Source: a virus
Taxonomy: Duplodnaviria > Caudoviricetes
DNA: 64,000 nucleotides
Direction: 5' to 3' (one strand)
IMG/VR virus record: IMGVR_UViG_3300028888_000055
Part shown: in pieces, positions 6,309-42,916 of the stretch
Numbering within the stretch: the first letter of the stretch is position 1
Layout of the letters: every line of letters begins with the position of its first letter
Made by a program: the position numbers and the translations under genes
The notes under the pieces: model-generated
Databases searched by the model: none
What the model saw: the letters and a program-made list of their open reading frames with translations, nothing else
Told to the model about the DNA's origin: nothing

Positions 6309-6319
6309 TAAATTTGTAG
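6309..6319 (+). promoter_or_regulatory. Bacteroidota sigma70-type -7 promoter element (TAnnTTTG)
   Basis: TAAATTTGTAG lies in the AT-rich intergenic gap ~30 nt upstream of ATG 6348. The same 11-mer occurs upstream of the primase on the - strand. Confidence 0.55.
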
Positions 6320-6347
6320 CAGTTTAACTGTTAAACATTATTTTATT

Positions 6348-6665
6348 ATGAGAATTGTAAACAAATACAGAAAATTTCAAGACGGTGGAGCTATGCCTCC
6401 CGAAGGTGCCCCTATGGAAGCTCCTATGGAAGCTCCAATGGAAGGAGCACCCGCACCTGAAGAAGGTGGCGATCCTTTAACACAAATCTTACAAGTTGCA
6501 GCTATGGCTTTGCAAAATCAAGACTGTGAAGCAGCTATGGCAGTATGCCAAGCTTTTATTGAATTAGCTCAAGGCGGACCTCAAGGCGGTGCTCCAGCAC
6601 CTGCACCAGAAGGTGAACCTACATTTGCTAGATACGGAGCTAAACTCGTAAGGGTTAGAAGATAA
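6348..6665 (+). CDS. Small Pro/Ala/Glu-rich protein with KFQDGG motif (105 aa, no TAG)
   Basis: Intact standard-code ORF. N-terminal KFQDGG, APME repeats, short helical core, basic C-terminus FARYGAKLVRVRR. Confidence 0.85.
   Translation: MRIVNKYRKFQDGGAMPPEGAPMEAPMEAPMEGAPAPEEGGDPLTQILQVAAMALQNQDCEAAMAVCQAFIELAQGGPQGGAPAPAPEGEPTFARYGAKLVRVRR
6408..6443 (+). repeat. 12-nt coding tandem repeat x3 (APME)
   Basis: GCCCCTATGGAA GCTCCTATGGAA GCTCCAATGGAA. Confidence 0.85.
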
Positions 6666-6687
6666 ACTTAACTTTAAGGTTTATAAT

Positions 6688-6725
6688 AGGGGCTTATATG
6701 TTTAGCTATAAGTCCCTTTTATTTA
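6688..6725 (+). terminator. Rho-independent terminator
   Basis: Stem AGGGGCTTATA / TATAAGTCCCT (one G-U pair) followed by a T-rich tail, just downstream of the 6348-6665 gene. Confidence 0.7.
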
Positions 6726-6738
6726 ATTTATAGTAACT

Positions 6739-11574: not shown

Positions 11575-11575
11575 T

Positions 11576-13393: not shown

Positions 13394-13395
13394 TA

Positions 13396-19300: not shown

Positions 19301-22300
19301 CTGATCCTACAGCAGTAGCGGCTGCTACAGAAGGTGCAACAGAAGGAGAAGGAGAAGAAGGCGGTGAAGAAGGCGAAGGTGAAGGTGAAGAAGGTGAAGG
19401 CGAAGAAAACGATGACAATGATGATGGTGGTGAAGAAGACGACGGTGAAGGGGAACAAGATGTAGATTTAGTTCCTATCAGTGAAATGAAGGTACCATTT
19501 AAGAATAAAGTAGTAGTAGTATTAAAGTTAAAGAAAGACCAAATTGACTATGTACTAGAAAATGGATACCTTATTAAATCTGATCCAGTTGTTGTAACTA
19601 ATAAAACTACCTTAAAAACCGCTGTATAGAATATTAGAAATGATTTGATTGCAGGAGTAGCTGTTATACCCGCTGGAACAGAATTAGCTACAAAGATTTA
19701 GAACGGTGAGAATGATATAAGTATTCCTGCTGAATATATATATCCTAAATTTACTAAAGACGTAGTAAAGAAATCTAAAGGCAAATCTAAAACTCCTAGT
19801 ACAAAAAATAAAAATACTAAATTTGATGTAGGGGATATTATTACGATTAAACAATAGAAAGGTAAAAAAGCTTCTACTATTTAGTATAAAATATAGGATA
19901 TATCATCTAAGAAAATATTTAGTAAGAAAACAAAACGTTGGTCTACTAAACAAGTATATAAGTTACAACAAGTAGGTAAACCTGCTAATGTAAAAGAATG
20001 GACTGCGGATTTTGTAGATAGTAATTATAAGAAAGTAAAAAGTGCAACTGCTTCTAAAACTACTAAAAAGCAAGTATCTACTTTAGAGAAGATAATGGCG
20101 AGAGAAATTAAACCTGCAACTACAGGAGATACTGCTCCAGTATCTGATACTGAGTTATAGAATATTCTTAATTATGCTGATAACTAGGTAATGGGAGTTA
20201 AGTTATATTCTGGTTTATGTTTCAGAAGCGGTATAGGATTTAATGTTAATCCTAATACTGATACCTTTACTTTGACTTAGCTTGGCCCATTAGGAAGAGA
20301 TGAAGAAAATCTTTCTGATTTAAGTGGTCTTATATTGCCTTTCTTAAGCATAGTGGATACTAGTGGTAACCCATTACAGTATGACCATACTACAATGTCT
20401 GCTGTAACATCAGGAAATGATTTAGTAATATTATAGAAGGGTACGAGCAATGTTATTGGTAAAGTAAATAATCCAACTTTGCCTGTTAAATTGTTAAGTG
20501 AACTTGAAGTTACTCAAGCAAATCTCAGGTCATTATTAATGTTTAATAATGGAGATTTAAAAGAATTGCATAAAGATATCTATGGAGAGGTCTATAATCT
20601 ATATGCTAATAATTCAGCATTACTACAAACTACTAAAGATTTAACTAAGATACCTTTATTACAGAGGTTATTTTAGTTATCTAAAAATGCAGGTCCAGGA
20701 TAGTTTACTTTCAAATTAAAAATATTTAATAAAGATAACTTTGAGCCAGCCGTTGACAAAGTATTAAGAATGGGCAACTCTGCAGTTCCTAATTCTAAAT
20801 TATTAGTATATTCTATAGAAGGATGTATGGAAATAACTATGGGCGTATTTCCAAATCCTACAACTGTAGAGGCTTATGTATCTAACTTAGAAAAGATATA
20901 TAGGTCAATGAAAACAGAAGATAAAAATAAAGCACGCTTAAGTAAAGCAATAGCTTAGTTAAGGAATACTTTAACTGTAGTTTATTCTATAAATTCCAAA
21001 TCCAATAGTTTACAACAAACTACATACTGGGATTTAGGAGAATTTAACTTGGCCGAACATCGTGTAACTAATACAAAGAGAAGCCCAATTTAGTTTGCTT
21101 TAGGAAATGGAGAAACTCAAATGGATTTTGCTCAATTTAAGGAAGATCCAGATATTATTTGCTCTGATCCTTTCCTATTTACAGACGCTTATAAAAATGC
21201 TGGTTTAGTTGATCCTTCAACTGCAGGTAAAGCTGTTGTATTCTATACTACAGATTTAAATCTTTACTATGGTTTTGAGAACGGTAAATTAACAGTTGCA
21301 AATAGTAAAAAGAATGATTCATTTAAGAAGATAACTAAATCTAATAGTAATGAATTATACTCTTTATGGGCTACTGTTAGAGAATAGGCTGTTGCTTCAG
21401 GTAATATGGATGATTTAAATGCTTTAGGAGACAAAATTACAATGGTTGTTTTATCTCCAAAAGGCGTATCCTTAGAAGAATTCGTAACTCAAGCTATTAA
21501 ATTAAAAGAATCTATGAGAAATGGTGTAAAATATATTACTCCTGCGGGAAATATAAACACCTATACTAGAATTATAGAATTCTTAATTAATACTAATATA
21601 GAAGTAAAGAAATTCTTAGCCAAAATAAATAAGGATGGTGGGAAATCTTCTTATTCTTATGGCACATTATTTAGTGTTAATGGAACAAATGCAACTATTA
21701 ATTTCAACACTGTAGACGAAGTTAAATAGTTCCACGACGACTTAACATAGATGCTTTCTGGTATATTTACAACCATAGATTCTAATATTAATCTAGCTGA
21801 TTATGGTATTGGTAAATCTACATCTACTAAGAAATTAGAGAGTGCTTTAGGAAAACTATTAGTTGAAGTTATCGGAGACCAAGACTTAATAAAGGAATTT
21901 ATTGATAGTGGTAGAGTTGGGTATTCAGCTAAAGGTACTGGAAATACCATAAAAACAACTTTTAGTGGATCACATTGGTATGAAGTATTCTCTTCTATAG
22001 TTAGCTACTTTACAAATAATGTAAATGTTGATGATACTGAAATTGCTGAAAATAGAAAAGATTTCTTAAGTAAGTTAGAAGCTTTACGACAAGTGGACGC
22101 CATTGATAAAGAAAATCCATTAAAATTTGGAATCTTCTATAATCCAAGGTTTAAACCAAATCCTAATTTTAACCCTTCTAAAAAGGAAATGGCTTATCCA
22201 GCAATAGATCTCGAAGACCATTTCTATGTTTCAGTTGTACCTCAAACTCCTGACTTTGTATTACCCTTAGCAACACTAAGTAAAGTAAGTAGTACTTCAA

Positions 22301-23367
22301 GTTCGGATAATGTAGGCGCTACTGCTGCTCCAACTTCGGTAGCAAAAGCAGTGGCGGCTGCTCCTGCTGCACCTGCTTCAACTTCGGAAGCTGAAAAAAA
22401 ACTTGAAATATTTACTAGAGCTATTGATAAATACAAACCATTTTTAATTGATGTTTTAACTAACCCCACACAGAGAAATACTCCTCTTGATCCTACTTTA
22501 ATTCCACTTCTAGAACAAACCATAAATGATGTTATAGATTCAAAAAAAGAGCATTATATATAGATTTTAAAGACATCTACAGAGCATATTACATAGGATT
22601 TAAATACAAAAGGAGATAATTCTATATATGCAATAGAAGGAAAAATAACAGAAAAACTTCATGAATCACTAATATCATAGCTACTTATAGATATTATTAC
22701 AGAAGCCAATAATAGAATTCCAGACTTAAATATTTCTACTGTTGTGGTGGGTAATTAGGATGACGGCATTAGTACTCTTGAAAACGAGTTACATTCTAGA
22801 AAAAATTATAAAAATACTGATTTCAATAATCCATTAGCTGAAACATAGTTAGTTAAGGATGGTAAAGATTATTTCTTATATTATAAAGAAGACGGAATAG
22901 CTTACAGAGTTAAAATAACTATGTAGGACGGCTATGTACGAGATGTCAGAAGAAAAGTTATAAGTGCATCAGAATTTCCAGGGGCAGCTCCAACCGTAGA
23001 GCCAGAACAAAAATCTGATTCTTTAGAATTAATTCCTAAAATAATAGATAGCATTAATTCTGTTGAACCTCAAAGAGAAGGAGGAATACCAGAAGAAATG
23101 TTAAATATATTTAATGGAATTAAACAAAGTCTAGTAGAAGCTGTTACAGATTCAATCACTAGTGATCCTGAAGTCTTAAATGCAGCCGTATAGAAGTGGC
23201 AACTTGGTATGAGTATGTTAGAAAATCTAAAGAATATGTATTAGATAACTTCTAATTTAGAGGCTGTTATAGCTGAGCATATGAAAGAATTAAATTCGCA
23301 ACAAACTTCAGAAGACATTTGCGTAGATGCTCAAAACTTAGTAATTTTGTTGAATAAAATAATTTAA
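13396..23367 (+). CDS. Giant virion/ejection protein with SF1 helicase-like P-loop domain (3323 aa, TAG=Gln)
   Basis: Frame 1 from ATG 13396 to TAA 23365-23367 joins many fragments. Motifs GIPGAGKT (18031-18054), IFIDE (DE at 18361), TGDLQQ, AQGSE and YTTISRSK match SF1 motifs I, II, III, V and VI. Confidence 0.85.
19330..19460 (+). repeat. Low-complexity acidic linker (E/G/D-rich) inside the giant protein
   Basis: GAAGGT/GAAGGC/GAT-rich repeats encoding EGEGEEGGEEGEGEGEEGEGEENDDNDDGGEEDDGEG. Confidence 0.8.
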
Positions 23368-23380: not shown

Positions 23381-26300
23381 ATGAACGGACAATGTAGTTT
23401 AAATGATTCAAATATATATGCACTCTTAAATAAGTTATTAGTCCCAGGTAGAAACCTAGACAATACCTATAAAGAAATAGGTAAGACTTTAGTAGAAGCA
23501 GGATATGACTTATCTGAAGATAACAGAGAACATTTGGCAGAAGCAATGCTTACTTGGAGGAATAGTAATCTTCCAATAGCATTGTTTTCTCCTGGTTCTG
23601 AAAATCAAATATATCTAAGTGCATTAGCTGCTGATAGTAAAGAGTTGTAGTATGCTTTAACTTCTATTATTCATTGGAATGGAGATACTAAACCAGAAGA
23701 TACTAAATAGATGGATATAGTTGATTAGGATAATAACGACAATGACACTGTTGATATTACTACTCGTATTAAGGAAAATCAATTAGACGATATTTACTAG
23801 CAGGCAGCAGAAGCTAAAACTTTAATGTAGCAATCTTTTAAAAGAAATATTGTTAGTTCCTTATTAGTAAATTTTAAAATAGGCCAAATTCCAACAACTG
23901 CTGAACAAGTTAACAACAACATTGCTTCTTATAAAGAAGAATTGGTTAATACTATTGTTGATTATGCTAATACTTATGCAGAAAGGAATCTTGCTGTTTA
24001 GATGTATAACGAAGATGGTACTTTAAATATTAGCGGATATAGAACAGTTGAAGAATTAGCAAAGCATCTTTTTGAAAATACTACAGATATCGAACTTATC
24101 GATGCTTTTAAAATGCGAAATGATTCTCCAAAGTCTAGAGCATTTCTCGACGCTTTTAACGCTTGGATAATTCTAAATAACTTTGATATGCTATTGAAAG
24201 CAGAATTAAAGGATTCTGTCAACATTAAGAAAAGTCTTTTAGATGCTCAAGTAGATAAAGATGTTGTAAAATATTAGCTTGTAGATGAATCTGAATTAGT
24301 AAAAACTTGGAGAAATTCAGAGGATGTAAATGCTTTAAAAGAACTTGGTAATATAACTACATTGCTTATTTCTTCTACTCCCATGTATGATTACAATAAG
24401 GGTAAACCTTATTTACAACCTGGGAAGTATATAGACCCAAATGTCTTTTTCTTTGCATTTGCTGATATATTAAGAATACCAGCTATTAAGAGGATTTCTG
24501 AAAACAAACGCTATAATTCTTTGGAAATTATTCCTCAAATTATAGATGCTGTTTTAGCTACACCTTCTTTGGGACCTAATACTAATCTGATACACAGTAT
24601 AATGTATTCTGTTCAGTAGCACTTCTTTAGAACTTCTGGTAGAGGAGCCGACCAGGACTATTCTCTAGCAGAAATTATACTTAAGGATCAGAATTCGGAA
24701 GGTTATTCTGTAAATAAAAATTATTTGAATTATGTTGCATCTGCTATAGATAAAACCATACGAAATCTATACTTAACCTATAATTCAAATAGAGAAACTG
24801 GAGTAATTGAAACTAGAGTTTCTACGGATGTATCAGCTTCTAATAGCGAATTTGATATTAGAAATTCTATTGAGAGCCCAAATAAGATGCTCCTTCCTTC
24901 TTAGAGAGACCAGTTAATAAATACATATGTTCTTAACAATAAAGAATACTATGATACTTTATCTGAAGAAGAGCAAGAAAAAATTGGATATGACCCACAA
25001 TTGAGTTCATATCCAAGTTTATGGTCTATATCTACCGCTATTACTATGGGAGGGGCTCCTGCTAAATTAATAATACGCGTATTTAATGATATTACTTCTG
25101 ATAGTGGTCAAAATAATAAATCAATTCATTCTATAAGTATAGAAGATGAAAATGGAAACGTATCTACTATATTTAATAATAAAGATGGTTTTCTTCCAGA
25201 GACTCCAGAGGCAATACTACAAAATGTAGAATCTGTCATAATGGATATGATAGATGATACATTAAAGCAGAACTTCAAGACTAATCCTGAGTTCTTTAAT
25301 GCTTACATGTAGAATCTTCCTAATAAGGAAAATGGGCAACAGTAGTCGCATTTAGAGGGCTTATTATACTTAATTCCAATGGCTAATAGAGTATTAATTA
25401 AACATACTTTAGAAGCCAAGAATTTAGCAGAAAATACTTCATTATTAGACAAAGTATATAGAATCGATCCTATCTATAAATTTTAGAATGGAAAACAGAA
25501 ACCCTATTTATCCCTTTAGAAACGATTAAAAGTAATAATGGATACAAAGGGTGATAAGACTGTTGTAAAATTCTTAGGAAATGCTAAGATGGTAATTACG
25601 GGAGAAATTGCAAAGTCTACATCTAAGAATATTGAAGGTAATACTGTTTCTAACAATGGTTTAACTAACCTTATGAGTACTGTCGCTTTAGTATTTGAAG
25701 ACTCTAGAAAGAGATTAGCTACAGAGCAAGACGACAGTATGGAAGATCCTCACTACCGTAATTCTTGTTTACGAAATTGTGTTTTTGTATTACATCCTGA
25801 ATTTTTGCATGGAGTAGTGCAGAAACAAGGAGCTAAAAGTAAAGACGGATTATCTAGTAAATTAGATAAGAAATTTAATGTTGCAGAATCCCTAGAAAGC
25901 GCAATAAAATTTGATTTCTTAATTAACTATGGTTTAGATCCATCTAACTCTTAGCAAGGTATAATCAGAATTCAGCCTACGGATTATTCTGATAAGACTA
26001 CTGATTATCTTCTTGAATTAAATGGAAACATTCCAATTGCAAATAATAAAAGTTTAGTTGGAATGTCTTGTGCCGAAGTAGAAGAATTGCACAGGGTTCA
26101 AATGGATAGTATGTATAGTACTATGCGTAACAACATAGGAAAAGACTACCATGATACATTATTTACTTTTGTATTAGCTAATGCTGATATATTGGGGTTA
26201 AATCCATAGTATTTAATGCAATTGGATCAACGAGGCGACTATTCTACATATTATACTTTTTATACATAGGTAGTATTTAAAGCTATTAATGATAATATTA

Positions 26301-29300
26301 ACAATTTACAAGTAGACGGCAAAACTTATACTGACCCAAGGAAGTTATATAGAGATTTAGCCAGAATAAATAATACTACAGTAATTACTAATGTACATTT
26401 TGATGATAAGGCTAAAGTCTTAACTACTAATAATATTATTGATTATTATTTCCGTGTATTTGGGAATAAGGGAATATATGATTATGTTCTTAAGAGAAAT
26501 CAATTGCGCTTTATCAAGGACGTTTCTTCTTATGTTAATTTTAGATGGTCTACTCAAAAAGGCATTGACCCTATCTTGGAAAATGCTGTAAAGAGACTAG
26601 TAAGTAATGGTACTATCGGCGATGAAGAAATGTTCATACGTAATTGGGTAGACCACAGGACTGGCGATCTCGTATTAGCTAAACTAAATACAGACGAAGG
26701 GTCTATATCTTTGACTAAAACCGACTTAAAGAAATTAAAACTTTCTGATCTAATTTATGGCGATAATTTTGGATTTGAATTAAATCCAATTCTTAGAGCT
26801 TTTTTTGCTATTGATACAATGGTATCACAGCAGTTTATTAGTTCTACTGTTGGAGGTAACTTCGTACATAAAAATAACTTTGGAAAAAATCCTGACGTCA
26901 ATCCTTTATGGGAAAATGTAAAATTATTCGAGGAAGGTACTGAAGAATTTAATATTGCTTTAAATGAGTACTTAGATGCGGTAGAAGTAGAAGATGCGGG
27001 TAGACTGTTAACTCAGTATAAACGTATGGTTATTTATCCTGCAACTATGCACCCATTATACCAAATGGCATTAGAAGGCGTTCCCACATATTATAATATA
27101 GCAAGTATAGATGATGTTCAAGCTAATACTTGGGATTATATTAGTGGAGATTATGATAGTGACGGGAAACAAAAGACTATAGATGCTCATGACGGTTCTG
27201 GTATGGTAGATCCTGGATTTGCTATCCTTGAGAATGGATCATTACAAGGTGCTCACGTAGGTATTGATAAAAAACCTATTGGACACAGTATGGATGATTC
27301 ATATATGGTTGAAACGGAGCTAAAATACGCCTTATTCGCGATTACTAATTGGAAGGTTAGGAATTCTAGTAATAGAGTAGGGGAACATTATGGTATTAAT
27401 TATGACCTTATTCGTAGAAAGATGGGTAGCTCTGAATATGGACGAGGATGGCCCGCTGATTTGGATATAGACATTACCACTAAATTTAATGGCGAGAAAA
27501 TTGATTTGGATGACTTACAATCTACATACTTCTATGATCCTAAGCTTGACAGTTATTTCCAAATTGTAGGAATACAAAAATTACCTGATGTTAAGAATGG
27601 TTATATATTTACATACTAGCAAGTAGATGAATTTGCAAAACCTATAGGAAAGCCAATAGAAGCAGCATAGCCACTTATAATTGATAGCAATTATTCATTG
27701 TGGAAAGCTTTAGGTGGCGAATGGTCTTGCTCGATTTATGATGGTAAACTCGTAGAAGATGAATCATCTAACTATAATTGGGCTTACTTTGCAAACAATA
27801 TAGGATTTATAAGAACAAAACAAAATCCTATAGCTATGCATGAGATAGATTATACTGAAAATGATTTACTTGATGAAAGTGATATTACTACCGATGATAA
27901 TGGTAAAAAATCCTTCCCAGTAGTTTTAACTTAGAAGGATATATATCAACCTCTTAAATATTCAGGAATACAATATGCAGTAAATGTATCTGGTATTAAG
28001 AATGGTCAAGTGAACACAAATCCAGTACAATCTCATTATGACCAGAATCCTTTAAGGAGTTTCCGTATTTTGACTAAACATCTTGGAGTCCAAATGAATG
28101 CCGATCACCATGCTGATGATGCAGAACTTACTGAGATGTCTCAGGTAATTTCTGCTTTGGAAGCTAACGGTTGGGCCCATGATCTAGTTAAATAGATTTA
28201 CGAAGACCTGGGAAGTATAGTATTGTAGACCTTAGAACAAGAAATTAAAGCTCTGAAAGTTTTCTTAAAGACAGGTGACAATACAGAAATATATCGAATT
28301 GTAGGTAAATCCTTTATAAAATCCTTTGGTAAGGATGGAGGGCAAGATACTCTTACTGCTAGTATGATGAATAATATCATCAAGGAATTAAACGGAGAAG
28401 ACAATATAGAAAATATTGAATAGAAATTGCCTTTCAGTGACACTTCTGTATTATCCTCTGTAGTTGGTAGTATTACTTCTAACATCAATAAGACAGCTAT
28501 TAAAAGAAAATATTCTGGTTTGGCTGCCGTCCTTGTACCTGCATATGATATTATCAAAGTTTATAAACAAAGACTAGAGGATGGTTCAACGAAAGATGCT
28601 CTTAATGGTGACATCCTAAAAGCCGATACTGATCTAGAAGCTCAAACAGACACAGGCGATTTAATGTCAGCTAAGAACCTAGAATTAGGATTATCTTATA
28701 TAGTATATGAAAATCTTGCACTAGACCCACAGCCATTAAAGAAAGTCACAATTGACGGTAAAGAGTACTATGTAGGGCATGATGAAAATAGTATATTAGT
28801 TTTATTTGATAAATATGGCGCAGTTCAAAACATTCATATGCCTTATTGGGTGCAAGAACAATATGCTGCTGGACAATTACCTAATTTAACTGTTACATTG
28901 GATACAATTAACGACTATAAGAAGTTTAAGCGTTCCCAATTATAGTTTAAAGAGGATTATGCAGCAGGTAGAAATCTATAGCCATCTAAAACTAGTTTCT
29001 AGGTTAGAGAAGAAGAAGGCACTATATACAATATATTTGACGTTGATGAAATCGAACAAAAAATAAAATTTAGAGAATTTTATGATGCATTTAAAAAGAT
29101 TCCTGTAATGAATTACAAGAATTTCTTTAATAAAAATGATGCTTTGTTCGATATAATCAATAGAAATCCAAATCCTAGAATAGTATCTATATACACTAAA
29201 ATTAGAAATTTAACATCTAAAGACGTATTAACTACTAATGATGATGTAATGATTTAGAAGTATATGGATATATTAGAAGTGGAGTTTGCTAATTAGGTAG

Positions 29301-32300
29301 TAATGGCTTTCCAAAACTTGCACGAATAGCATATAGTGCATATGGGAGGAGAAACATTTAATGTCATTCCAGAAACAGTCGAAGTTAAACCTGCTGAGTT
29401 AGTTGTATCTAAAATATATGCAACTAAATTTGGAATAAAAAAGGGCGATAACTTAAATACTATTGATCTTTAGTATTTCATCGACCAACAAAAAGAAAAC
29501 TTCGTACCTAAAACGGAATTATATGATATAATGCTCCGCAGAGATAATGGAAGACATACTTATGTCCTATTGAGTAAACATAAAGACGAGTTATTAAATA
29601 AGCATTTTGTAAAAGTAAATCCACCTACTCGCGTAGACTCTATTACTGGCGATGTAATAAGGTTAAACGAATTAGAAGAGGATATGATGCCATTTAATAA
29701 CTGTGAATTATATGTTAAAGACGGAATAGAAGTAATTGTAACAGATGATCCTGCTGATTTAGTAGACGATGCTTTTGAGTATTCTTCATATGATATAAAC
29801 CCATCTAGTAAATTTGGATTAGAGGACTTAAAAATATTCGATACAATTCCTCTGAAGAGAATAGCACTAGAGCAGAGAGAAAATTATATTAATAATTTAG
29901 CTCAGAAAAAGTGGACTTCTTTTTAGCAGTCATTAGAATTTATAGCTGCTCGTATTCCTGCTCAGGCCTTGCAATCTTTTATGCCTATGAAGGTAGTAGG
30001 ATTCACTGATTCTGAAGAAAACAAAGCTTATGTTTCCCATTTTTAGACTTATCTCCAAGGTTCTGACTACGATATTGATAAAGTATATTTAATGGGTAAC
30101 GAGTTTACAGAATCTGGAATCTATATTGGCTGGAGTCCATTCTTTAACTTAAATAGTTTACAGAAGTTAAAGATTTCCCAGGAAATTCCTATGCCAAATG
30201 GTTTAGAATACTCGCTGGTTTCTAAGCAAGATGCTGCTGAAAATGTCTAGGATATAACAGAAGATATAATTAATCTTAAATTAGCAGAACTTAATTACGG
30301 ATAGGATAGTATTTAGTATTTAACTACAATTAAGAACCTTCTTGTTAAGATTTAGTAGAATAAAAATTCAGAATTAGCAGTAGATTATGCTTCATTAGCA
30401 GACACTTTCATAAAAGAAGGTATTGCTCATGATCCTACAGCGTCTTTACAGTTTGTTTAGGATGAATCTGAGAGAATACTTGATATGATTAATAGGCATT
30501 CTTCCTATTTTAAAACAGTTAAGAATAAGGATATGCGCTTAAAAATGACTAAGAATTCTGTCACATCCAAGATGTATAAAACTGCTAATCTTCCAGAAAA
30601 TACTTATGCTGCTTATAGTCCTATTGAGATGGGAGAAACTAGAGAAGCTGCCACTAAGTCTTAGATGGGTGAAGCTGAGAAAGATTACACTACCTTTAAT
30701 CCAGTGTCTAAGTTTATGATGCATTATCAAAACATGATGGGTAAAGATGGTATTGGTATATCGGCGGTAGGAGAAAAAGTATTATTCTGTTTGTAGTTCT
30801 ACTTTAACGAAGCTGCAAGACTAGATTCAAATTTAGACGATCTTAATTCTGACGAATTTAAATACTAGAGAAATGCATTCTTCCATAAGTAGCTGGATAT
30901 AATAGCTTCTGGTACGGATAGAATGACTGTAATTCGCAACCTTATTGCAAATATTAATTTGAGAAATAATGATCATATATGGGCTCAAATTATTAATTCT
31001 AATGTAGCTGAATTAGAGAGTTTAATGCAAACAAGCCAGGATAAAGAAAGGATTGCATTTTTACAAGATATGATATTGCTTCAATTAAATTATATGAAAG
31101 ACAGTTCTCTTGTAAATAGTTCTCTTCTTTCTGCGGCAACTGATAATGCTAAAGAGCTTATCCTTGCAAAAATTAATGCTAACCCTGATATGATGAAAGT
31201 TTATACCTATGGTATAATATTAGGAATTGACTTTACAGATATAGCAAACTTGATGACATCTCCTACTATAAATGCTGTTAATTAGTTAAGTGATGTTAAT
31301 ATATTTGAGAAGGATAGCTTAGTATCTGCCATTACATCTTCTTTAAATTCTCTTAAGAAGGGTATAAATCCAGGGGAATACCTTAATACTACTGATATAG
31401 AAATAATCGAAGACTTACTTTTTAAAGTACCAAACGGAGACTCTAGAAGACTAGATTTACAGGAGCTTATTCGTAAATCCAAAACATCTAGTGTAGAAGG
31501 ACATACTACATTTAAGCAAGATTTAGATAGCGTAAATAAGGGAGAAGTTAGTTGGGAGCAATTTGCAGCAAATTGGTCAGTTAAAATCTATAGCATCATT
31601 AAGCTAATGGACGGCTTAAGTGGTTCTAACCCTTCTCCAAGTATTCAATAGCTTTACAGATATTTATTTAAGATGCAAGAATGGTTAGATATCGTAAAGG
31701 ATATTGACTAGAGAACCCTTCTCACCTTTAAGGATATGTTAGATTCAGCAGAAGAATTTGTTACTTTTGGTGCTATTTTGGGTATTAATTAGGGCATTAG
31801 AACTGATGTTGATGGTAAACTAGCATATTTAAATAGAATAGAGAATGTATTTAAAAATAGATTCGATAAAGGAGCTTCTACAAATGTAAGTGATATTCTA
31901 GCTGCTAAACCTTATTATGTAAAATTCTATGGCGGAGAGCAAGAGGCTAGAAATTACATAGAAGCTACTGTTAAGAAGGCGGATTCTTTAGGAATCTATA
32001 ATGATTTTAATGTACTGCAATTTCTATTAGATGATGAGTATAGAGCAATCGCCATTGATGCTTATGACTTAATAAAAGGTACTATTAATATTCTTGATAT
32101 AATATCGAGAGTACCACATTTCCAGGCAATGATAGACTCTAGTAGCGTTGACTTTTACCTATTCAGTAGTATTAGTTCTGTATTTAATTTAATGTACAAT
32201 ATTTCACATGATCTATTATAGAGAGGTGAATTAAGTTCATTATCTGTTAAACAAAGAACTGACTTTACTAGAGACCTTTAGAACTTCATACAATCTCAAA

Positions 32301-33319
32301 TTGCTTTAAAATACTTCAAAGATAGAAATGTCAAAATTCCAATTGGTGAAGGAAATTAGGTAATTAATAAAGACGGTGCATTGGTAACTATTGAGCAGGA
32401 AGAAGCTTTAGATTTAGGAACAGTAGAAGGACAAGCCGCCTTTAAGCTTTGGATGGAACAATCTGTATTACCAAATTTAAGGTTAGGAGTTGTAGAAGAC
32501 GGAAATGATGAGTATATTCAACGTTCATTATTAACTAACAAATTCATACAAGCTCTTACTTTGAATTCTACTACTAGAACAACAACTGGAGACGAAAAAG
32601 GTGTTATATCCTTACCTATTAATATGTCCGTATCGACAAGTGAATATAATGAGAATATGTTCGTATCGTATCTTACTGACTTTAATAAGTTAAAAGGTGT
32701 AACTTATAATGGTATTCCAGTACAATCTTTATTCTTCTGGTATAATTTAATTGTAAATAGAAATGTCCAAAGCCGAGATGCTTTAACTAAAATATTTAAA
32801 TCTGCTATTAGAGATAATAGAGGGGATAATGATATTAATGATTACTTTAAGTATGTTGGCGACATGGATAAAAGACAATTATTCTCTTTAGAAGACTTCA
32901 ATATGCAAGATTTATTATTATCTTGTGCTCCAAAAGTCACTAGAGCATGGCTAGTAAATGAGAAGTATGAGTCTAATTAGTATCCTACATTTGTGAAAAG
33001 CTGGGATTCCGACACTGGCACATATAAAATATATAAACTAGATCCTACTACTTTCGCGAAGCGAGGCGGGGATGAAATGGATGAACTAGCTTATGCTCAG
33101 ATGGAGGACGCAGGAGAATTAGACTATGAAACCAACGAATTTACTCCTGTAGGATATAGAGAATATACTATAAGTCCAAGTATGAGTAAAGCAGAAATGG
33201 CTAATTTATATCCATTCTTGCCTTATAATTCTCGAGAATTCAAGACAAAGGATGTAATAAATCAATTAAGTAGATTATTTAAACAAGGTAAAATTTTTAT
33301 TTATAACGATTGTGGCTAA
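23381..33319 (+). CDS. Virion-packaged two-barrel DNA-dependent RNA polymerase, crAss-like (3312 aa, TAG=Gln)
   Basis: Frame 2 joins ORFs 23381 through 32993 and ends at TAA 33317-33319. Catalytic region RIPAQALQSFM...LQGSDYDIDK (DYDID at 30065-30079) is absent from the ORF track because of flanking TAGs. Also PTDYSDK, DAHDG and GKDGIGISA. Confidence 0.93.
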
Positions 33320-36206
33320 TAATTGTATTCCAAAAATAATAATAGGTGGCTAGGAATTTGTTGGTTCCTAGCTGCCTGCCCATTCGTCTCTTACACAAAT
33401 ATTGTAGAGCGTATTGGCTAATGGTAATAATGCTTCAGAATTAAATCAAATATTATCTGATATTTCTAGTCTTGATTAGGTGTAGATAACTTCATTTGAT
33501 CAAGTTGCTTAGATAATACCAGGTAATGCTACGTTTATGGATATATCTAAAAAGATACATTCTGAAGGACGTATATATTCTCCAGTAAATAAGTCTATAG
33601 AAGAAGCTATAAGTATTATAACTAAATATGGTAACTACCCAAAAATATTATGGTTAAATGGTGATATAAAGTTAAATGGGGCTTCTATTCCTAATGTCAT
33701 TATTACACCAAATGGAGAAGATATTATAGTTCTTAAATCGAATGATCCTTTTGAGATAAATATAGCATTATAGGAATACATTTATAAAACATTACTATCT
33801 ACAAGAGCAAGAAGTTTCTTGAGTCTTATAGAGACCGCTATGGGTAAGAAAATTACTCAAAAAAATAAAGACTAGATTGATTTAGTATTTAAAAGAAATC
33901 CTGCTATAGCTGCTATAGGAACTAAAGAAGAATATAGACAGTATTTATTATCTATATTCCCAGAATCTGTAGAAACTTCAATCTATTGGCATGGTTCAAA
34001 TTCTGATTTCTCAGAAGGATTTTAGAGTGCACAAAAAACTGAAGGTAGCGGCGCACCTGAAGTATAGGATAGAAATGATATGTATTTTAATAAATAGGCA
34101 TATGCTTCTATTCAATATGTAAATGGTCAAAACAGAACTGCACCAGCAGACGTTAATGGTTTTGCTCATTGGAATAAATTATATTGGGAATTAAAAGAAA
34201 TCCTTTCTAATGGTGTATCTGGAGAAAACTGGAGAAATCAAGTAATTGATACAAGTACTATTAGAAAAGAAATTCCTAATAAAAGAGGTGAATTTGATCC
34301 TAAAAGAAAAAAAGGTAAGACTCTAGACTAGAGAAAACGAGACTATGGCTATGGGGAAGGAGATGAAGAGACTGAAGCTTTCTTCAGAGAAGTTTTTGGT
34401 ATTGAAATAAATGACCCAAATAAAAAAATAACTTTTAATGAATGGGTTGCTAAAAATAAAAAAATCTTCAAAGATATGGAGGGAGAGGCCCCTGGGCTCT
34501 ATCCAGTAATTCTCAATATCAAGAAACCTATTAAAGAAGAAGGTTAGGATACCTATTATGAAGGTCACCGTAGACTATTTACTAAAGCAGCTAAAAAAGG
34601 TAATGATGCTATTATAGGAACTCATACAAAAAATGAATTTGGGTCTGATGTAGTGGTAATGCTCAATCTTGAAGACAATCCAGAAGAGAGAGTACATTTT
34701 TTAGGAACTACAGCAGATTTAGAAGCATTTGCAGCTTGGAAACGACAAAATCAACTTTCAACTGATAATATAATTGAAAAAATACTACGAGATCCATTTA
34801 TAAATGAATTTCTCGATTCTGAAGGTTCTGCTGTTACTGATGGCTTTGCTACTCTTAGAGATGAACTACAAAGTGTAGTACATCAAGCAATTAACGACGA
34901 GATTAGTACAGAACACTACTTTAGATTAGAGAAAGTAATTAGTGGAGGGTAGACTGGAGTAGATACTGCAGGTGTTACTATAGCAAATGAATTAGGATTC
35001 GCTACTGGAGGAACTGTACCCGTAAATGGTTTAAGAGAAAGATTAAACGGTCAGCCTAATAACATATCTAAAGAAGATATGGTTAAATTCGGATTTGAAG
35101 AAATACAAGAAGTCACTGCTTCAAATCCTTATACTGACAGAACGAGAGCCAATGTGGAAAATTCAGATGGTACTGTTTATATCTTAGCCAGTAAATATCT
35201 TGCTAGTGGAGAAGAATCCGCTGGTTATAAAGCTACTTCAAAAGCTGCTATGGAACTTGGAAAACCCTTTGCAGTTGTGCATAGTGCGTAGGAATTAAGA
35301 GAATTTGTTATAAATAATAACATTAGAGTATTAAATATTGCAGGTTCTAGAGAAAGTTCATATTCTCCTGGGGATGCAGAAAGAATAAACGGCATTATTA
35401 AAGAAGGCCTTACTGCACAACCTTGGATAACAAAAAGTAGAGTCGAATCTTCTTTAGTTACTTCAAAATACCCAAGTGCAAACTACAACACTGATAATAT
35501 GAGTGTTTCTGATGTGCAAGATGCTCTTAATAATCGCTCTGCTAATATGATTTCTTACTATGGAAAAAATAAAGCTAATCCATCTATTCCAGGCAATACT
35601 TTTGAGGCAATTTTAACTCGTCAAAGGACTGCCACTACTAGGTTTAAAAACTTATATTTTTGGACACAAAAAATAAAGGTTGGCGATATTGTGGCTTTTA
35701 AGAAAAGCAAAGATAAAGATTCTAGTGTAGTTTTTGTAAAAATAAAAAGTGTTAATCCTATAGACGAGGATGCTAATCCTTCTGAATGGTCGAGCAAGGA
35801 AGGATGGTCATAGGCTTATTTTAAGGATGTAGTCATTCCAAAAATTAGAGCAGCAAAAAAGGAGGGCCTGCAACCAGTGTAGATAGAATATGAATATGTA
35901 GGAGCTATTATTAATGATGACTTAAAGAATGTTTAGGGGACGAGTGAAACTACTTTTACAATATAGACTCCTATAGGGCCTCTTGAATTTAGAAACCAAA
36001 AGGATTTAGCAAATAAGTTAATAACTATTAGAAAACAAATAGTTGGAACATAGAATTAGGAAGCCGAAGAAAAACTATAGAATGATATGAATATGTATGC
36101 CCAAGCTATAGTTACAGGTATTCTTCCTAGTGGAAGGGATATAAATAATGATCCTGTCGAGATGTAGACTTTTATAAATACTGTTATCAATGACGGAAAC
36201 TGTTAA
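33312..36206 (+). CDS. Polyvalent protein: ART-PolyVal-like ADP-ribosyltransferase + SLOG (cpYpsA/MoCo-carrier-like) + ASCH domains (964 aa, TAG=Gln)
   Basis: GTG start overlaps the RNAP stop; frame 3 runs to TAA 36204-36206. ART-like: IGTKEEYRQYL.SIFPES...YWHGS...LYPVILNIKKP...GNDAII...VHFLGT. SLOG: KVISGGQTGVD...RTRANVENSDGT...VLNIAGSRES. ASCH: FEAIL...RTATTR...KVGDIV.F...KEGW. Confidence 0.8.
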
Positions 36207-36211
36207 TAAAT

Positions 36212-38149
36212 ATGGCTTAGTGTATAAATAAATTAGAAGTAGAATATCAACAATTATTAGAAATGACAGGGCTAACGCCTGCAGAATTGGACTTATACAT
36301 AGGAGAATACTATCAAAAGAATGGGAAGTGCCCCACTGTAGATAGATTCCTACGTACAACTAATACTACAGCGGCTTTTGTCAAGGAATATAATTTAAAG
36401 AAATGTGGCAAAGGATGGATAGCATAGGACGACAGACCTATTGATATTCCATTGATTAACTCTAAATACCGAGATATTGAAGTGTCCGCAATAACCTCTA
36501 ATATTAGCCCTACTGTTTACATGGCCAAAGTAAGAGCTATTTAGAATAGAGATTTGGACACACCTACAACTTATTTATTACCAACCACCATTGAACAAGT
36601 AAAAGAGCTAGAACCCGAGGTGCAGCTCGAGGATGGTTCCTACCTTTATAGGCAAGGTAACAGAATTTATAGAACAAATTGTAAAGTTACTAGTCCTCTT
36701 TTACTTACATATTATCCAGACTTTGCCACTTATTCGGAAGCTCTTGCAGCTCCAACAGAAAAACCCAGTTACGATAAAAGTGTAATTGACATCATTAGAT
36801 TAAATAGAGGTAAGTTATTTAATGACCAGTATGTAAAAGTAAATACTTCATTAAATTTACCAGGAGAAATTAAGTTCTACAAGAACTTTAATTATCCAGT
36901 ATTTGAATTCAATGATGTTGTTGGAGACCGCGACTATTATATAAATTCTTTAGGAGTTTTATTAATAAATCCTGATGCTGTAAATAGTGATTTAGATTTA
37001 GAAAGAATTATTTTATAGGCAGAAGGCTTTGATGACTCTCAGATCGAAACTATTTTATCTGGATTATCTAATTATGAAACTTATGAAGCTATTAGACAAA
37101 CAGATAATAGTTACTTATTACATAAGGTTAATAATGGAGTAGATATTAATAGTGTAGCTAATACTATTTCTCCAAAAACCCAAAATAATGGAGAAAATCA
37201 TCTAGGACAAATTCTTGATAGGCTAGAAGAGTTATATGGAATAGGGTTCATAAGAACTAGTACAGCAGAATTGCAGTCTAACAATTTTACTGCTATTATA
37301 CCTGATGCTACTAGAGTAAACGCGTTTATATATTAGGGACAAATTTATATAAACATGGATAATGCTACATCTGATTCACCTATCCATGAGTTAGCTCATA
37401 TATTATTAGGAGCTCTCAGAAGTACTAATCCTAATATATATTATGCCTTAGTACAATCAGTTGAACAACTTCCAGATTATCAACAAAGACTTCAATAGTT
37501 CCCTAACCGAACTAGACAAGATGTCAATGAAGAAATCTTCGTAGACTTGTTTGCAAAACATTATACTGATGGTTTAAATCTTGAAATTGATTAGAACACT
37601 ATGGATGATATGGAATATGAAATTGAGCATAATATAGACTCAGGCATATTCCCAAATAAAAGTACTACTACAATAAATTTAGCAGAACTTATGAATAAAT
37701 CCTTGAATGAAATAATGGATGTATTTGGAACTGCTATTAACAGGGATACTTTAATAAAAGCTTATAATAGCGATACTGCATATTGCCGTACAATATCTAA
37801 TATAAAAGAAGAGCTTTTAAAGAGAAAAGAACTGGAAGAATATTGCTCTGATGGAGGACATCATGCTCAAAGAATGATTAACGCTTACCATAGAGGTCAG
37901 AACTCTAATCCTGCTAAATTTTTAAAAGGTCGTATGGCAGATAATGCGAAGGATTTAGATACATTCATAGAGAATGTTAAAAGATCTTTCCATGAAACAG
38001 AAAGGGGGACCTTTGATGTTAATGGAAGATTTTATAAAAATCCAGATTCCTCTTACGCACAAAATGCTAGAGGGGCAAAAGATATAAAGGAGCTCTGGAA
38101 TGAATACAGATCTTATGTAATGTAGAACTATCCAAACACAAATATATAA
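36212..38149 (+). CDS. Zincin-like metallopeptidase-domain virion protein (645 aa, TAG=Gln)
   Basis: ATG GCT TAG TGT start; frame 2 runs to TAA 38147-38149. AFIYQGQIYIN...PIHELAH (HExxH at 37385-37399) with a downstream NEE third ligand. Confidence 0.85.
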
Positions 38150-38155
38150 TAAATT

Positions 38156-41100
38156 ATGAGTACATGTGTATATAAACTTGGAGGAAGAGTATTTGGTTCA
38201 GAATTGGACTTGGATAACTTCTTATATAATTATCTTGATTCTTTTGATGCGGATGCTATACCTGATCTTGTATTTAGTACACGATCTCCAAAAGCTAACG
38301 TACTTTCAAAAAAATTAGACGATAAAGCAGAGGAGTTAAAGGCTAACGTAGTTAAAGCTGCGAAATTAAGAGCTAGAAGAGACGAATTCGTTAGTGAAGC
38401 AGAAAGCGCATTAATAGCAAATTATTATGGTGCTAATATGGTATTATCTACTGTAGAAATTGCTCCAAATACAAGAATAACTCCAGAATTCATTCGCTCC
38501 AAATTAAAGGCTAACTTATTTAATTAGTGGACTGGACAACCCTCTGCCAACTCAACAGGTATTAGCAAAAATATTGCTGATATTTTAGCAGCAGCGGGTT
38601 ATACAGAAAACGGAAGACAATTAAAAGCTGGAGATATTATTACAGAATAGACATATGCTGGCAATTCTACTAACATAGAGGATATCTTTCCTAAATGTAA
38701 TGATATATTTGAAAATTATGTGTGGCCATATTGGTCAGGTTTAGGAAAAGTAGGTACTGCTATGCACCGTGTGGCAGAAATGTTCTGGTTAGGAGAAAGT
38801 ACTATTTCTATATTAAATGATTCAGTTGTTATAACTGGAGATGATAGTTTTACTGGTGATTTATCCAGAGTTTCTCCTGTTCTTTCTAATGATGCTATAC
38901 ATGAGTTTCTTACATATTTAAATAGTTTAAAAACTGTTTTACAGGCTAGACATGGAAAAAACTGTAAGTTTAGACCTGAGTATCCAGTAGTTGCTAAAAG
39001 CTCTCTCCCAGTAAAAGGAAATCACAAGGCTCATATTATAGGTATTATTGACTTGGTAGTAGAAGACGAATAGGGAATACCTCATATCTATGACTATAAG
39101 ACATCTGATAAGGATATGGACGAGTGGGGCGCAATTAAGAGAAGATCTTATATGGCCCAGTTAGCTTTATATAGACGAATTCTTGAATCATATGGCATAG
39201 ATGTAGAAGGTACTACCCTAGGAATTTTACCTATAAATTTATCATAGTATAATATAACGAGAGATGGGTCACCAAGAGTTAACGGTATAGAATGTCCTAA
39301 AGATGCGAGAGGTCTTCCTTATATTGAAGATCTTTCTAGAGAATAGGCTCTACAACCTTTAGGAGAATTAACTGCAAAAATTAATAAGTTAGTATATGCT
39401 GAAAATCAGCTCGAAGCTTTACCTACAAACTTTATTCGAAATATTGAAACTCATTTCAAAGAATTCTTTCCAAGTTATACCTTTTAGAAAGAATACGATG
39501 ATGCTGTAAAAGCAGGTATAGAAGAAGAAATAAAAGAAAATTTGAATAATGGTAAGTATATGTTCCCAAAGATTCCAGGTGAAAAAGAGCGTATGGAATA
39601 TGATAAGGAAGAAATCTCTTAGCATATGGAAGAATTTTATAAAAAATATGTTACTTAGAATGACATAGCACAAAAGCGTAACATATTTTATATAAAACAG
39701 GCTATTAGGGAACAAGACCCTGCTCGACTTCCAGCAGTATCTTCTATTAACTATGGAGATAAGGGTGAATGGTTTATTCCAATGTTCTCTAGATACTGTA
39801 ATGGTTCATGGGAACCTGTAAATAATAGTGCTCTCGAGAGCTTAAATATATTAGCTTTAAGAAATAAAATTTCTGGGCAAGTTAACTTCTTTATTTTAAG
39901 CGGATATGACTTGAGTCGTAAGGTTAAAATGAAAGAGGGTAATACAGTTCTAGGATAGCACGTTAATGATATTACACCACAACATGCTGGCGTTATCCCA
40001 CTAGAAGCTGATTTAGGAAATATTGAGTTAATGAAAGCTATGGTAGCTATTAATTTGGCATCTAGATCGGTTCTTCGTAAAGGTGATAAGCTCGGCGAAG
40101 TAATGGCGATAAATATTTGGAATTAGCAAGGTAGAACTACCTCAAATAAGCAATTAATGGATAACTTTAATGCTTTATGTGATTACTCTCAAACAACTAT
40201 GCCTAATAATTTCGCAAGTGGTAAAATAGAAGTAGCTTCTGCAACTCAAAAGGTTGCTACTACTATGCTTGAATTAGGATCGTTAGAAAAAGTAGGAGTT
40301 TTGAATCGTATATATTCTAAATATGAAAAGAATTTAGTGGCTTTAGATATTGAATATAATACATTAAATAGACTTCGTAGAGAACTAGAGGATGCTTATC
40401 CAGATTTAGCAGAAGGAGAAGTAGACATTAATACTCCACAAGGAGCAATGTATTCTACTATTATGACTGCTATTTCTGAAATGAATAATGCTTATTATAC
40501 TCAGGAATTAAGGGACAGTTCTTTTGTATAGCTCAATGTTAATACCCCTGAAATGATGAAGTCTTCTAATTTAAGAAGGTTAAGAGCATTAACTAACAAT
40601 GCATTCTAGAGATTACGTGATAGAATGAATAGAGAAGCTGCCGAATGGAGAATTCATTATGATAAATTAATAAAAGCTAAAGGTTATAGTAGAGGTGAAA
40701 AGTGGATTACTGATAATGATTCTCGTCTTTACGAAAATATGATTATTCATAATAAAGAATAGGGTATTCTTAAATTCAAGAATCCTTGGGATAGAACAAC
40801 GGATTTAACTGATGAAGAAAGAGAATTCTTGAAGTGGTATTTGGATAAGTAGGATCAACTAAGATTTGAAGAGGATAGTACAGAAGAAAGTCGCTAGTTA
40901 AGAAGAGCAGATTCAAATAGTCAATATTTTGATGTTCCTTTAATGGAATCTAAAGGACAGGAAAAAATATTGAATGGTAGAACTAAAGGTTTAGTTTCAT
41001 GGTTTAAGCGTACTATACAATGGTGGAGACATCCAATTCAGAATGCTAAACGCCTAGAGGCAAAAGTTTTAACAAATGAAAAAGCCGATGAAGCAAAGAA

Positions 41101-42916
41101 AACAGCACAAGCTTTTAGAATTATGGATGTGTTCGAGGAAAGCGAAAACGAAGTAACAAGAACTAAACTCCTAAAAGAACACGATCTTGACTATTTTACT
41201 ACAAGTGTTGAAAAAATATTCTACGCTTATTCTTTCTCTAAGATTAGAAAGAGTGTATTGGACTCTTACATGCCAGTGTTAAAAGGTATGTATGTAATGC
41301 TAAAGACAAATGGTATGTTAAATAACATTGGTATAGAACAAATGGAAAAATACCTGGTAAATTATGTTTCAGCAAAGATAATGAATCGTTCATTAGTATC
41401 AGACGAATATAAAGGTTTAGCCCATGTTATGAGTAAACTTAGGAATGTAACAAGTGAAGTTACACTGGGTATTTCTCCAAAAGCATTCTTATTCTAGCTT
41501 ATCGAAGGTGTATGGAAAAACAATTCTCGTTCTATTATAAAGCCTATGGGTCTTAATTAGTTCGGACACCAAGAATATAAGGACGCTTTGGTATGGCTTC
41601 TTGGAGATGCGAAGAATCACTTTAAAGTAGTATCAATGGGAGAACTTATTAACGAACAATATGGTATAAATGACCAGGATATTAACGTGTTAGCAGATAG
41701 ATTGCGTGAAGGACAAGATGCTTTAACATTTTAGGGCAAATTAATGTGGATGGTTAGTGCTCCAGATTATATGAACCGTATGGCTATATTTGTTGCTTAG
41801 ATGAAAGCAGATGGTTGTTTTGATGCTCACACAATGAACGATGATGGATTTACAATGTCATATGATTGCTCTAAAGATTCTCGCTTTAATAAACTTAAGT
41901 TTAATAGAAAGAGTAGAGAAGACGTTGATTCTAGAGATCCAGAATATCTTAAGTAGCTAGCTATGTATAAGAGAATGGTAGATGAATTCAATGCAGAAGG
42001 TTACAAAATTGTAGACCCTAATACTGGATTGGAAAGAAGCATGACTTATAATGATAAATTGCCTAGAGCATATACTAATAGAGAAGCAAGAAGTATAAAA
42101 TCATTGGCCGATGCATTATATGGTTATTACAACCATGAAGACTAGTACCTATTAAAGAGTTACTTATTAGGTGCTTTATTTACACAATTTAGAACTTATT
42201 GGTCATCTCTTAAGAATAGATGGTGGTTAGATGGAGGTATTTACAGTCAAGGCCATTGGGAACATATGAAAAATTCAAAAGGTGAATTGATGTATAAAAA
42301 AATAATCAATGAAGGTCAAGAAAACGAAAGAGTAATTCTTATTCCAGAAAGTCAATTAAATGGCGAAATTCTAGAACCATACATGGATTGGAAAGGCTCT
42401 TATTAGGAAGGGTATTGTTAGACAGTCTTAAGTCTCTTTAAAGATATGTTTAGTCCAAATGAAGATGACTTGTCTATGTCTGAAAGAGCTAGACAATGGT
42501 GGAAAGGGAAAGAAGGTATCGATGATACTGTTGCCTACACAAGAAGAGCCAATATGAAGTTAATGATTCACGATTTATCAGTATTCTGCTTAATATAGTT
42601 AATATTTGGTACAATCATTATGCAATTGTTCAAAGACCAGAAAAAAGCAGACAAGACCAAAAATCTAACTGCTATGGAAAAAGTATTAAGATCTGCAGAA
42701 AGAGTAGGACTTTATTCTATGATTTAGTCTGGCTCTGACCTTGGAATAGGAGATGTCTTCTCACCAATGACCGATTGGACTCCTCCTAGCTTTGCAGTAG
42801 CTAAAGAAGCTTGGAAAGACATGGGAGAAGTAATGACTGGAGATTAGAATTTCTTTAAAGCAGTGGTTGATAACGTAGGTTTCTTACGTCAAACTAAGAC
42901 TTTATGGTCACTTTGA
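38156..42916 (+). CDS. Large virion protein with PD-(D/E)XK (RecB-like) nuclease domain (1586 aa, TAG=Gln)
   Basis: Frame 2 joins ORFs 38156, 38720, 40157, 40943 and 41963 and ends at TGA 42914-42916. Motifs GTAMH, E, GIIDLVV, IYDYKTS and QLALY. Hydrophobic segment near 42575-42632. Confidence 0.85.

Follow-up and report, generated by a model that had tools for sequence, protein, structure and literature searches.

A TAG-recoded gene overlapping the virion RNA polymerase gene of a gut crAss-like phage encodes a candidate polyvalent effector with an ADP-ribosyltransferase of the ART-PolyVal clade

We analysed a 64,000-nucleotide stretch of DNA from a Caudoviricetes virus (IMG/VR record IMGVR_UViG_3300028888_000055), hereafter called the window, and in particular the gene at 33312-36206, which begins over the stop codon of a virion RNA polymerase gene. 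The source is a gut crAss-like phage using TAG as glutamine. The gene product, called here the target protein, is predicted to carry in one chain an ADP-ribosyltransferase (ART), a cpYpsA-type SLOG domain and a probable ASCH-like domain. The ART identity of residues 184-478 is strongly supported. As judged from alignments, the domain is best regarded as representing a divergent subfamily of the ART-PolyVal clade that bears an insert, and it is apparently active, the catalytic triad being intact. We consider it reasonably probable that the protein is an NAD+-using polyvalent effector which is packaged together with the polymerase and injected; its packaging, injection, use of NAD+ and targets are what we infer from the evidence given below.

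When genetic code table 15 (TAG as glutamine) was used, the plus strand region formed one uninterrupted frame holding 23 in-frame TAG codons, whereas table 11 gave only pieces of 70-108 amino acids. The first-pass annotation of this DNA, made from the letters alone, had described one chain visible only after TAG readthrough, and the comparison of the two codes bears this out. Codons CAA or CAG are often found in five related loci at positions 154, 188, 252, 262, 412, 547, 914 and 952 of the protein, where the window has TAG, in support of the reading of TAG as glutamine. The late block on the plus strand (1-42916) holds 228 in-frame TAG in 14,127 codons, distributed over 11 frames which are all opened by recoding, in sharp contrast to the 17 minus strand genes at 43395-63970, which hold a single TAG in 5,306 codons. 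No tRNA genes were found within the 64-kb window. Annotation with the standard code and with Pfam alone overlooks the gene as well as its main domain, the ART.

The GTG start overlapping the polymerase stop is kept, besides the window, in three related loci (L001, L003 and L005; 38-92% identity), and comparison of the same loci revealed that the N-terminus of the protein, V(A)(N/D)NC.P.I.I, is conserved at the protein level. Since both the overlap and the N-terminus are conserved in relatives, the split between polymerase and target protein is real and their co-translation is plausible. Translational coupling to the polymerase had been claimed at first pass; the start/stop overlap is conserved, and coupling itself is a plausible reading of that overlap. 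The four genes of the polymerase block in the window (23381-42916) begin with M-x-x-(x)-C (MNGQC, VANNC, MAQC and MSTC), and the starts MYC, MQC, MASC and MDNC were seen in the polymerase blocks of relatives (L003, L005, L006 and L007). Polymerase and target protein also have a Cys within the last few residues (NDCG and DGNC), the corresponding ends in relatives being GNC, GCN, LLMC and ETIC. The same pattern of Cys at the ends occurs in gp055-gp057 of IAS virus (L002), a member of another crassvirus family (MSLYC...CNGD, ...NLC.K and MARSC).

The ART was characterised by sequence search, profile comparison and modelling. A phmmer search of 1.8 billion representatives with residues 184-503 gave 426 significant matches. 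The close ones, at 40-55% identity, form a distinct subfamily, and the distant ones, matched at E 1e-9 to 1e-12, are small proteins whose scores for the ART-PolyVal family, PF18760, exceed its gathering cutoff. Comparison of the crAss-type subfamily with bona fide PF18760 members by hhalign gave a probability of 99.8% (E 3.8e-28). The elements shared in this alignment are a helical lead (NP.L..IGT..EY..YL..IFP.S), strand 1 (YWHGS), strand 2 (MYF) and, past a helical insert, strand 3 (YPVILNIKKP), the GNDAII motif which holds Asp432, and a C-terminal HFLGT..D...F. The insert is conserved across the crAss-type subfamily and is absent or non-homologous in the canonical members examined. In an alignment of 78 sequences, the columns of the catalytic triad hold His in 73 (with 4 gaps), Tyr in 54 (and Phe in 11 more) and Asp in 71, and the HGS and YF motifs are near-invariant. 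An H-Y-D active-site configuration, with His in strand 1, Tyr in strand 2 and Asp in strand 5, has been described for the ART-PolyVal family by its authors (PMC5512222).

The AlphaFold2 model of the ART reached a mean predicted local distance difference test score (pLDDT) of 92.3 and a predicted template modelling score (pTM) of 0.87, and H227, Y258 and D432 were located at or beside predicted strands. When the model was compared with 48,161 PDB representatives in an all-against-PDB structural search, ART folds filled nearly all of the top 45 rows; the neighbours included PARP1, tankyrase, PARP2, exotoxin A, cholix toxin, ParT, MbcT, diphtheria toxin and Arr, and the best match had Z 6.3 with a root-mean-square deviation of 4.4 Å over 123 aligned residues. 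The best Foldseek matches were PARP4, tankyrase and exotoxin A, with weak E-values. Among the BFVD viral models, matches carried PolyVal ADP-ribosyltransferase names, including one of the crAss-like phage cr130_1, and an N4-like virion RNA polymerase was matched as well. The ART-PolyVal-like domain proposed at first pass (~33876-34745) was thus recovered by profile and fold, and the motifs noted then have found their places, the H of HG at 33990 being H227 of the intact H-Y-D triad, LYPVILNIKKP being strand 3, and GNDAII containing Asp432.

The second domain is firmly a cpYpsA SLOG by its sequence, as had been called at first pass (~34930-35410). It matched PF12694 at E 6.8e-22 with 78.2 bits (cutoff 26.2), and PDB entry 3imk at E 3e-6 over 143 residues, where SGGQTGVD aligns with SGGQTGAD and NIAG.R is common to both.

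The third domain is quite likely ASCH-like, and we do not file it as a member of that family. Residues invariant between the homologous regions of the window and L003 are FEAIL, R-T-x-T-T-R and EGWS, which we take to sit at the places of the conserved N-terminal and EG motifs of ASCH; likewise, I-L-x-x-x-R-T-x-T-x-R presumably resembles the G-x-K-T-x-T-x-R of the YqfB type. Seven of the 12 best structural matches of the low-confidence model of this region were ASCH proteins, followed by other PUA-like domains. They comprised PH0355 (2z0t, Z 6.5), E. coli YqfB (9kyf, Z 6.4), 1t62 (EF3133), 3s9x (Lactobacillus ASCH), 3iuw, 1xne (PF0470) and 5guq (Zymomonas ASCH), over 93-113 residues with Z from 6.5 to 4.8, a range (below 8) in which matches can arise by chance. 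Of the 103 positions of the ASCH family profile (PF04266), the alignment covers 7-82. In L003 the corresponding region has large insertions and gave no Pfam match, and PDB sequences searched with a profile of the ASCH alignment yielded no ASCH protein. The ASCH domain named at first pass (~35545-35900) therefore agrees with the fold matches and falls short of the Pfam threshold, and is taken as probable, not proven.

A word-indexed protein search with residues 690-964 found no standalone relatives, the longer matches being confined to P0002 and P0156, and a scan of viral contigs with the ASCH region of L003 found no match. P0156 (509 amino acids, from a 2033-base ENA contig) joins an ABC-F-type ATPase to a 60-residue stretch about 90% identical to residues 790-852 of the target protein; it was rejected as a real fusion, being most likely a chimeric metagenome assembly. 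The C-terminal tail is shared with P0003, and those of P0004 and P0005 look similar to it by eye, with pairwise scores not above shuffled controls. The segment following the ART was also considered as a repeat of the C-terminal tail, which would account for module shuffling, and the idea was discarded as the scores did not exceed shuffled controls (z 0.7-1.9). Neither the ART nor the N-terminal domain was matched in scans with Pfam, PHROGs, NCBIfam and PADLOC, and the neighbouring giants had no matches apart from those given here. The features are listed in Table 1.

Table 1. Positions in the window of the target gene, its parts and the upstream polymerase gene
Feature	Position	Strand	Basis or remark
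crAss-type virion RNA polymerase homologue, 3312 aa	23381..33319	+	DYDID aa 2229-2233 (30065-30079)
Target gene	33312..36206	+	964 codons + TAA; 23 TAG read as Gln
GTG start over TAA stop of polymerase gene (GTGGCTAA)	33312..33319	+	target in +1 frame
N-terminal domain (aa 1-183), no known family	33312..33860	+	only in close relatives P0002-P0004 and L003
ADP-ribosyltransferase, ART-PolyVal clade (aa 184-478)	33861..34745	+	triad, profile, fold
Catalytic triad: His227; Tyr258; Asp432	33990-33992; 34083-34085; 34605-34607	+	conserved columns
Mostly helical insert of ~128 residues between ART strands 2 and 3 (aa 265-392)	34104..34487	+
cpYpsA-type SLOG (aa 542-684)	34935..35363	+	PF12694; intact GGQTGVD loop and NIAGSR motif
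Probable ASCH / PUA-like beta-barrel (aa ~746-870)	~35547..35921	+	motifs FEAIL..QRTATTR and EGWS
Short beta module and helical C-terminal tail ending ...NDGNC	35949..36203	+	tail common to P0003

Comparison of the relatives, where a survey of domain swaps had been suggested at first pass, revealed that the SLOG and ASCH modules of this protein are reordered or dropped. The order N-terminal domain, ART, SLOG, ASCH and tail is common to the window, L001 and P0002. P0003 consists of N-terminal domain, ART, a degenerate and shortened SLOG, and tail, and P0004 of N-terminal domain, ART and tail. In L003, the full frame reads N-terminal domain, SLOG, ASCH, ART and tail, so that SLOG and ASCH have changed sides together with respect to the ART. 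A chain that joins several enzymatic domains unrelated to each other, in an arrangement varying among relatives, is the architecture of a polyvalent protein, and the predicted domains place the target protein in this type.

The ART is also found inside the polymerase itself. The polymerase of L006 (P0011, 3442 amino acids) aligns with that of the window on either side of an inserted ART of the same subfamily (48% identity), whose insertion point follows the DLDID motif by about 70 residues. A separate homologue of the target gene is lacking in L006, yet the helicase giant and the nuclease giant flank its polymerase as in the window. P0019 carries the ART at the same insertion site as P0011, whereas in P0041, P0092 and P0155 it is C-terminal to the polymerase motif. 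In P0006 and P0008, an insert-bearing ART stands in tandem with a canonical ART-PolyVal, and the P0006 gene belongs to a standard-code crassvirus, in which it closely follows the genes for muzzle, cargo-1 and cargo-2. Since the ART occurs inside or beside the polymerase in relatives, it belongs functionally with the virion polymerase block. Among other giants, P0057 (5232 amino acids) and P0062 (5837 amino acids) contain a GSDFDGD polymerase-type motif and ART-PolyVal segments, P0057 having in addition a SLOG segment at residues 3565-3609.

Two standard-code crassvirus contigs were seen to encode ART-bearing proteins. L008 encodes at 6001-15513 a 3170-residue protein with an insert-bearing ART followed by a canonical ART-PolyVal (E 1.6e-24), and crAss cargo families and the muzzle gene stand upstream of it. 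At 1-12432 of L009 a 4440-residue NADAR giant is followed by a 2143-residue protein with an N-terminal ART. The ARTs of L008 and L009 (49-50% identity) belong to the same insert-bearing subfamily as that of the window, and their genes translate under the standard code. The first-pass annotation had suggested RF1 or tRNA as targets in a recoded phage. Nothing was found in support, and because the ART subfamily is not restricted to recoded phages, the only argument for such targets falls.

The identity of the upstream gene rests on its motif. Pfam and PHROGs scans do not recognise the 3312-residue product as a polymerase. However, it holds RIPAQ...GSDYDIDKVYLMG, i.e. the motif RIP...GSDYDIDK, at residue 2229, and the arrangement of RIP, about 35 residues and G[ST]D[FYL]D[IV]DK is shared by the annotated IAS virus RNA polymerase and by the related giants P0011, P0041, P0092 and P0155. 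The crAss virion polymerase is defined by a DFDxD/DxDxD motif, to which that of the window corresponds. The virion RNA polymerase named at first pass thus rests on a motif aligned with the annotated IAS virus enzyme. L003, L005 and L007 share the gene order of the window, in which the polymerase is followed by the target, a 564-645-residue gene and a PD-(D/E)XK giant. Upstream of the polymerase, at 13396-23367 on the plus strand, there is a 3323-residue giant with a superfamily 1 (SF1) helicase core (AAA_30, residues 1540-1689, E 1e-6); an SF1-helicase giant in this place was seen only in the window and L006. The plus strand gene at 38156-42916 encodes a 1586-residue giant with a PD-(D/E)XK nuclease domain (residues 199-367, E 8e-8). 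It is conserved in L003, L005, L006 and L007, its place being two genes downstream of the target, and is weakly similar to gp057 of IAS virus, annotated as 'RNA-polymerase subunit'.

ART-PolyVal (PF18760; Tox-ART-HYD2-like clade) was described as a domain of polyvalent proteins of phages and conjugative elements (Iyer et al. 2017, PMC5512222), its prototype being fused to the N4-like virion RNA polymerase of Roseovarius Plymouth podovirus 1 (PMC5512222). Such domains are widespread in phages in general. The target ART resembles them in the helical lead (NPEL..IGT..EY..Y...IFP.S), the H-Y-D triad, the ART fold and the profile homology, and also in being tied to a virion-delivered RNA polymerase and to unrelated enzyme domains in one chain. 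It differs in its helical insert, which hides it from the Pfam model, and in its polymerase, which is of the two-barrel crAss type whereas that of the prototype is of the T7-like N4 type. It is moreover encoded by a separate gene over the polymerase stop, in contrast to the ART within the polymerase of relatives. T4 Alt is a packaged, injected, late-made ART which modifies host proteins such as RNA polymerase (PMC5512222). The likeness to it is one of outline, a late ART delivered with the DNA, as is proposed here for the target. However, Alt belongs to the R-S-E clade and shows no family-level homology, and of the two proteins it is Alt for which packaging and targets have been experimentally demonstrated.

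The SLOG domain has the family match and the intact Gly-rich loop of cpYpsA SLOGs (PF12694; 3imk, 'putative molybdenum carrier'). For the viral YpsA-like SLOGs, a role in sensing or degrading immune signals derived from ADP-ribose has been proposed (Iyer et al. 2022, PMC9503650); they are described as mostly standalone or fused to Macro or NADAR domains (PMC9503650), whereas the present one is joined to an ART and a probable ASCH in a protein of the polymerase block. ASCH proteins (YqfB 9kyf, PH0355 2z0t, Zymomonas 5guq) provide the best structural matches of the low-confidence C-terminal model, and the target departs from them in staying under the Pfam cutoff and in having Arg in place of the conserved Lys. 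A counterpart beside the polymerase is gp055 of IAS virus ('molybdenum carrier', 837 amino acids), which carries a cpYpsA SLOG (43% identity over 168 residues) and adjoins the polymerase gp056. Unlike the target gene, it lies upstream of the polymerase, and it has no similarity to the target outside the SLOG; neither a Pfam scan nor a BLAST comparison with the window protein found an ART in gp055. In gp055 (L002, 13293-15806) the SLOG occupies residues 268-415, and residues 86-259 resemble part of a giant of cr130_1, namely gp79 (L010; 5801 amino acids), named 'DprA-like' in RefSeq. From gp055 and gp79 it follows that giants of several crassvirus families carry SLOG-type domains. A tblastn search of 50,697 phage records with the target matched only the SLOG domains of IAS virus and Maribacter phages.

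We propose that the target is a modular polyvalent protein which would be synthesised alongside the virion RNA polymerase late in infection, be taken up into the capsid, and enter the host by injection with polymerase and DNA. Of the readings considered, the co-injected host-takeover or counter-defence effector put forward at first pass is thus the best, and it is favoured by the relatives that have the ART within the polymerase chain and by the four loci in which the gene retains both its place and its start/stop overlap. At the start of infection its H-Y-D ART may use NAD+ to ADP-ribosylate a host macromolecule, the most likely acceptor being a component of host gene expression, and this modification would tip transcription towards the injected polymerase. 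The SLOG-ASCH pair may serve as an accessory, movable cassette that binds or processes a nucleotide-type ligand, e.g. an ADP-ribose-derived signal or a modified nucleoside. Packaging is suggested by the polymerase fusions, the gene order and the proteomics of phiCrAss001, in which proteins encoded beside the polymerase were identified as virion cargo by mass spectrometry (PMC10172136). The gene is part of the late block recoded for TAG and neighbours the virion polymerase, a gene context consistent with delivery.

Several observations weigh against this proposal or against the domain calls on which it stands. A direct Pfam scan of the target finds no ART, even at E 10; we attribute this to the insert of ~130 residues, which splits the match. 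The structural Z-scores of the ART are middling (6.3) and are no proof of the fold by themselves, and the fold was accepted because the uniform list of matches and the sequence evidence agree. No characterised member of ART-PolyVal was found in the literature. The ASCH call rests on a model of residues 735-964 built from four sequences with pLDDT 56, and the Pfam score for PF04266, 13.3-14.9 bits (E 0.04-0.14), is under the cutoff of 21.2. The SLOG-ASCH cassette is dispensable, as the SLOG is degenerate in P0003 and missing in P0004, and its role therefore cannot be read from the ART. Finally, the target has no similarity to gp45 or gp46 of phiCrAss001, and no match to crAss_CARG1 (PF25725) or crAss_CARGO2 (PF25712) was obtained at E up to 1.

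The last of these observations, together with the place of the gene in the recoded late block, would also suit an enzyme that stays in the cytoplasm unpackaged and modifies phage or host components late in infection, for example the polymerase before its packaging or the host translation or transcription machinery, and which is not delivered to the next cell. We consider this unlikely. Several relatives have the same ART within the polymerase polypeptide, the crAss type of polymerase is a virion component in phi14:2 and phiCrAss001, and the overlap of the two genes, being conserved, indicates that their products are made together. A second alternative, to be taken seriously but in our view unlikely, is that the ART acts on nucleic acid or nucleotides instead of protein, with ASCH as an RNA-binding and SLOG as a nucleotide-processing companion. 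The insertion of the ART about 70 residues from the polymerase catalytic loop in L006 speaks for such a role, as do the PUA-like ASCH (isoelectric point 9.3) and the nucleotide-binding SLOG in the same chain, the presence of NADAR in other crAss-type blocks, and structural neighbours that include RNA- or DNA-directed ARTs (RhsP2 and ParT-type toxins). Protein-directed neighbours (PARPs, exotoxin A and cholix toxin) are equally frequent, however, and protein targets were predicted when the family was first defined (PMC5512222). The insert, which is mildly basic in most homologues, was also counted in favour of a nucleic-acid substrate, but insert charge proved uninformative as a clue, the insert of the window being near neutral. 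In a more specific form, to which we give only a slender chance, the ART would be coupled to early transcription and would attach ADP-ribose to the earliest phage transcripts, at their ends or bases, as a cap-like mark, or to host RNA, and the SLOG-ASCH cassette would read, trim or recycle the nucleotide products. If true, an injected transcription machine would here have a novel means of marking or protecting its own RNA.

That the ART is a catalytically dead scaffold, in a protein which is mainly a structural or ejection component, seems very improbable. The parts common to the closest relatives, the N-terminal domain and the tail, are indeed without enzymatic signature, but the near-invariance of triad, HGS and YF motifs across the 78 homologues and the intact nucleotide loop of the SLOG argue for function as an enzyme. 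We also find it hardly credible that polymerase and target are made as one fusion through +1 ribosomal frameshifting within the final 15 codons of the polymerase gene. The target frame is open for 14 codons upstream of the GTG and is +1 to the polymerase in all four loci, and in-frame fusions of ART and polymerase exist in relatives. Nevertheless, the canonical GTG is conserved exactly at the overlap, no recognisable shift site was seen, and the upstream similarity is accounted for by the C-terminus of the polymerase itself.

The target protein is a sound example of a known phage polyvalent-protein type and not a new kind of system: the polyvalent-protein concept (2017) and database names for ART-PolyVal-like domains in crAss-like phages were already there. 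What is new here is an insert-bearing ART subfamily missed by Pfam, a detached gene with a conserved overlap, a movable SLOG-ASCH pair, and an ART which, in a single syntenic block, is encoded either within the polymerase or by the gene that follows it. The literature searched gave no account of an ART in the polymerase block of crassviruses. The crAss-like phages are the most abundant human gut viruses, and to our knowledge the cargo that they inject besides the polymerase, and their takeover of the host, are largely unknown. This locus offers a well-defined candidate effector, with an ART that appears active from its conserved residues and two nucleotide-centred accessory domains. Since in N4-like phages this ART family is found joined to a virion polymerase of unrelated type, a general functional link between injected polymerases and ADP-ribosylation is suggested.

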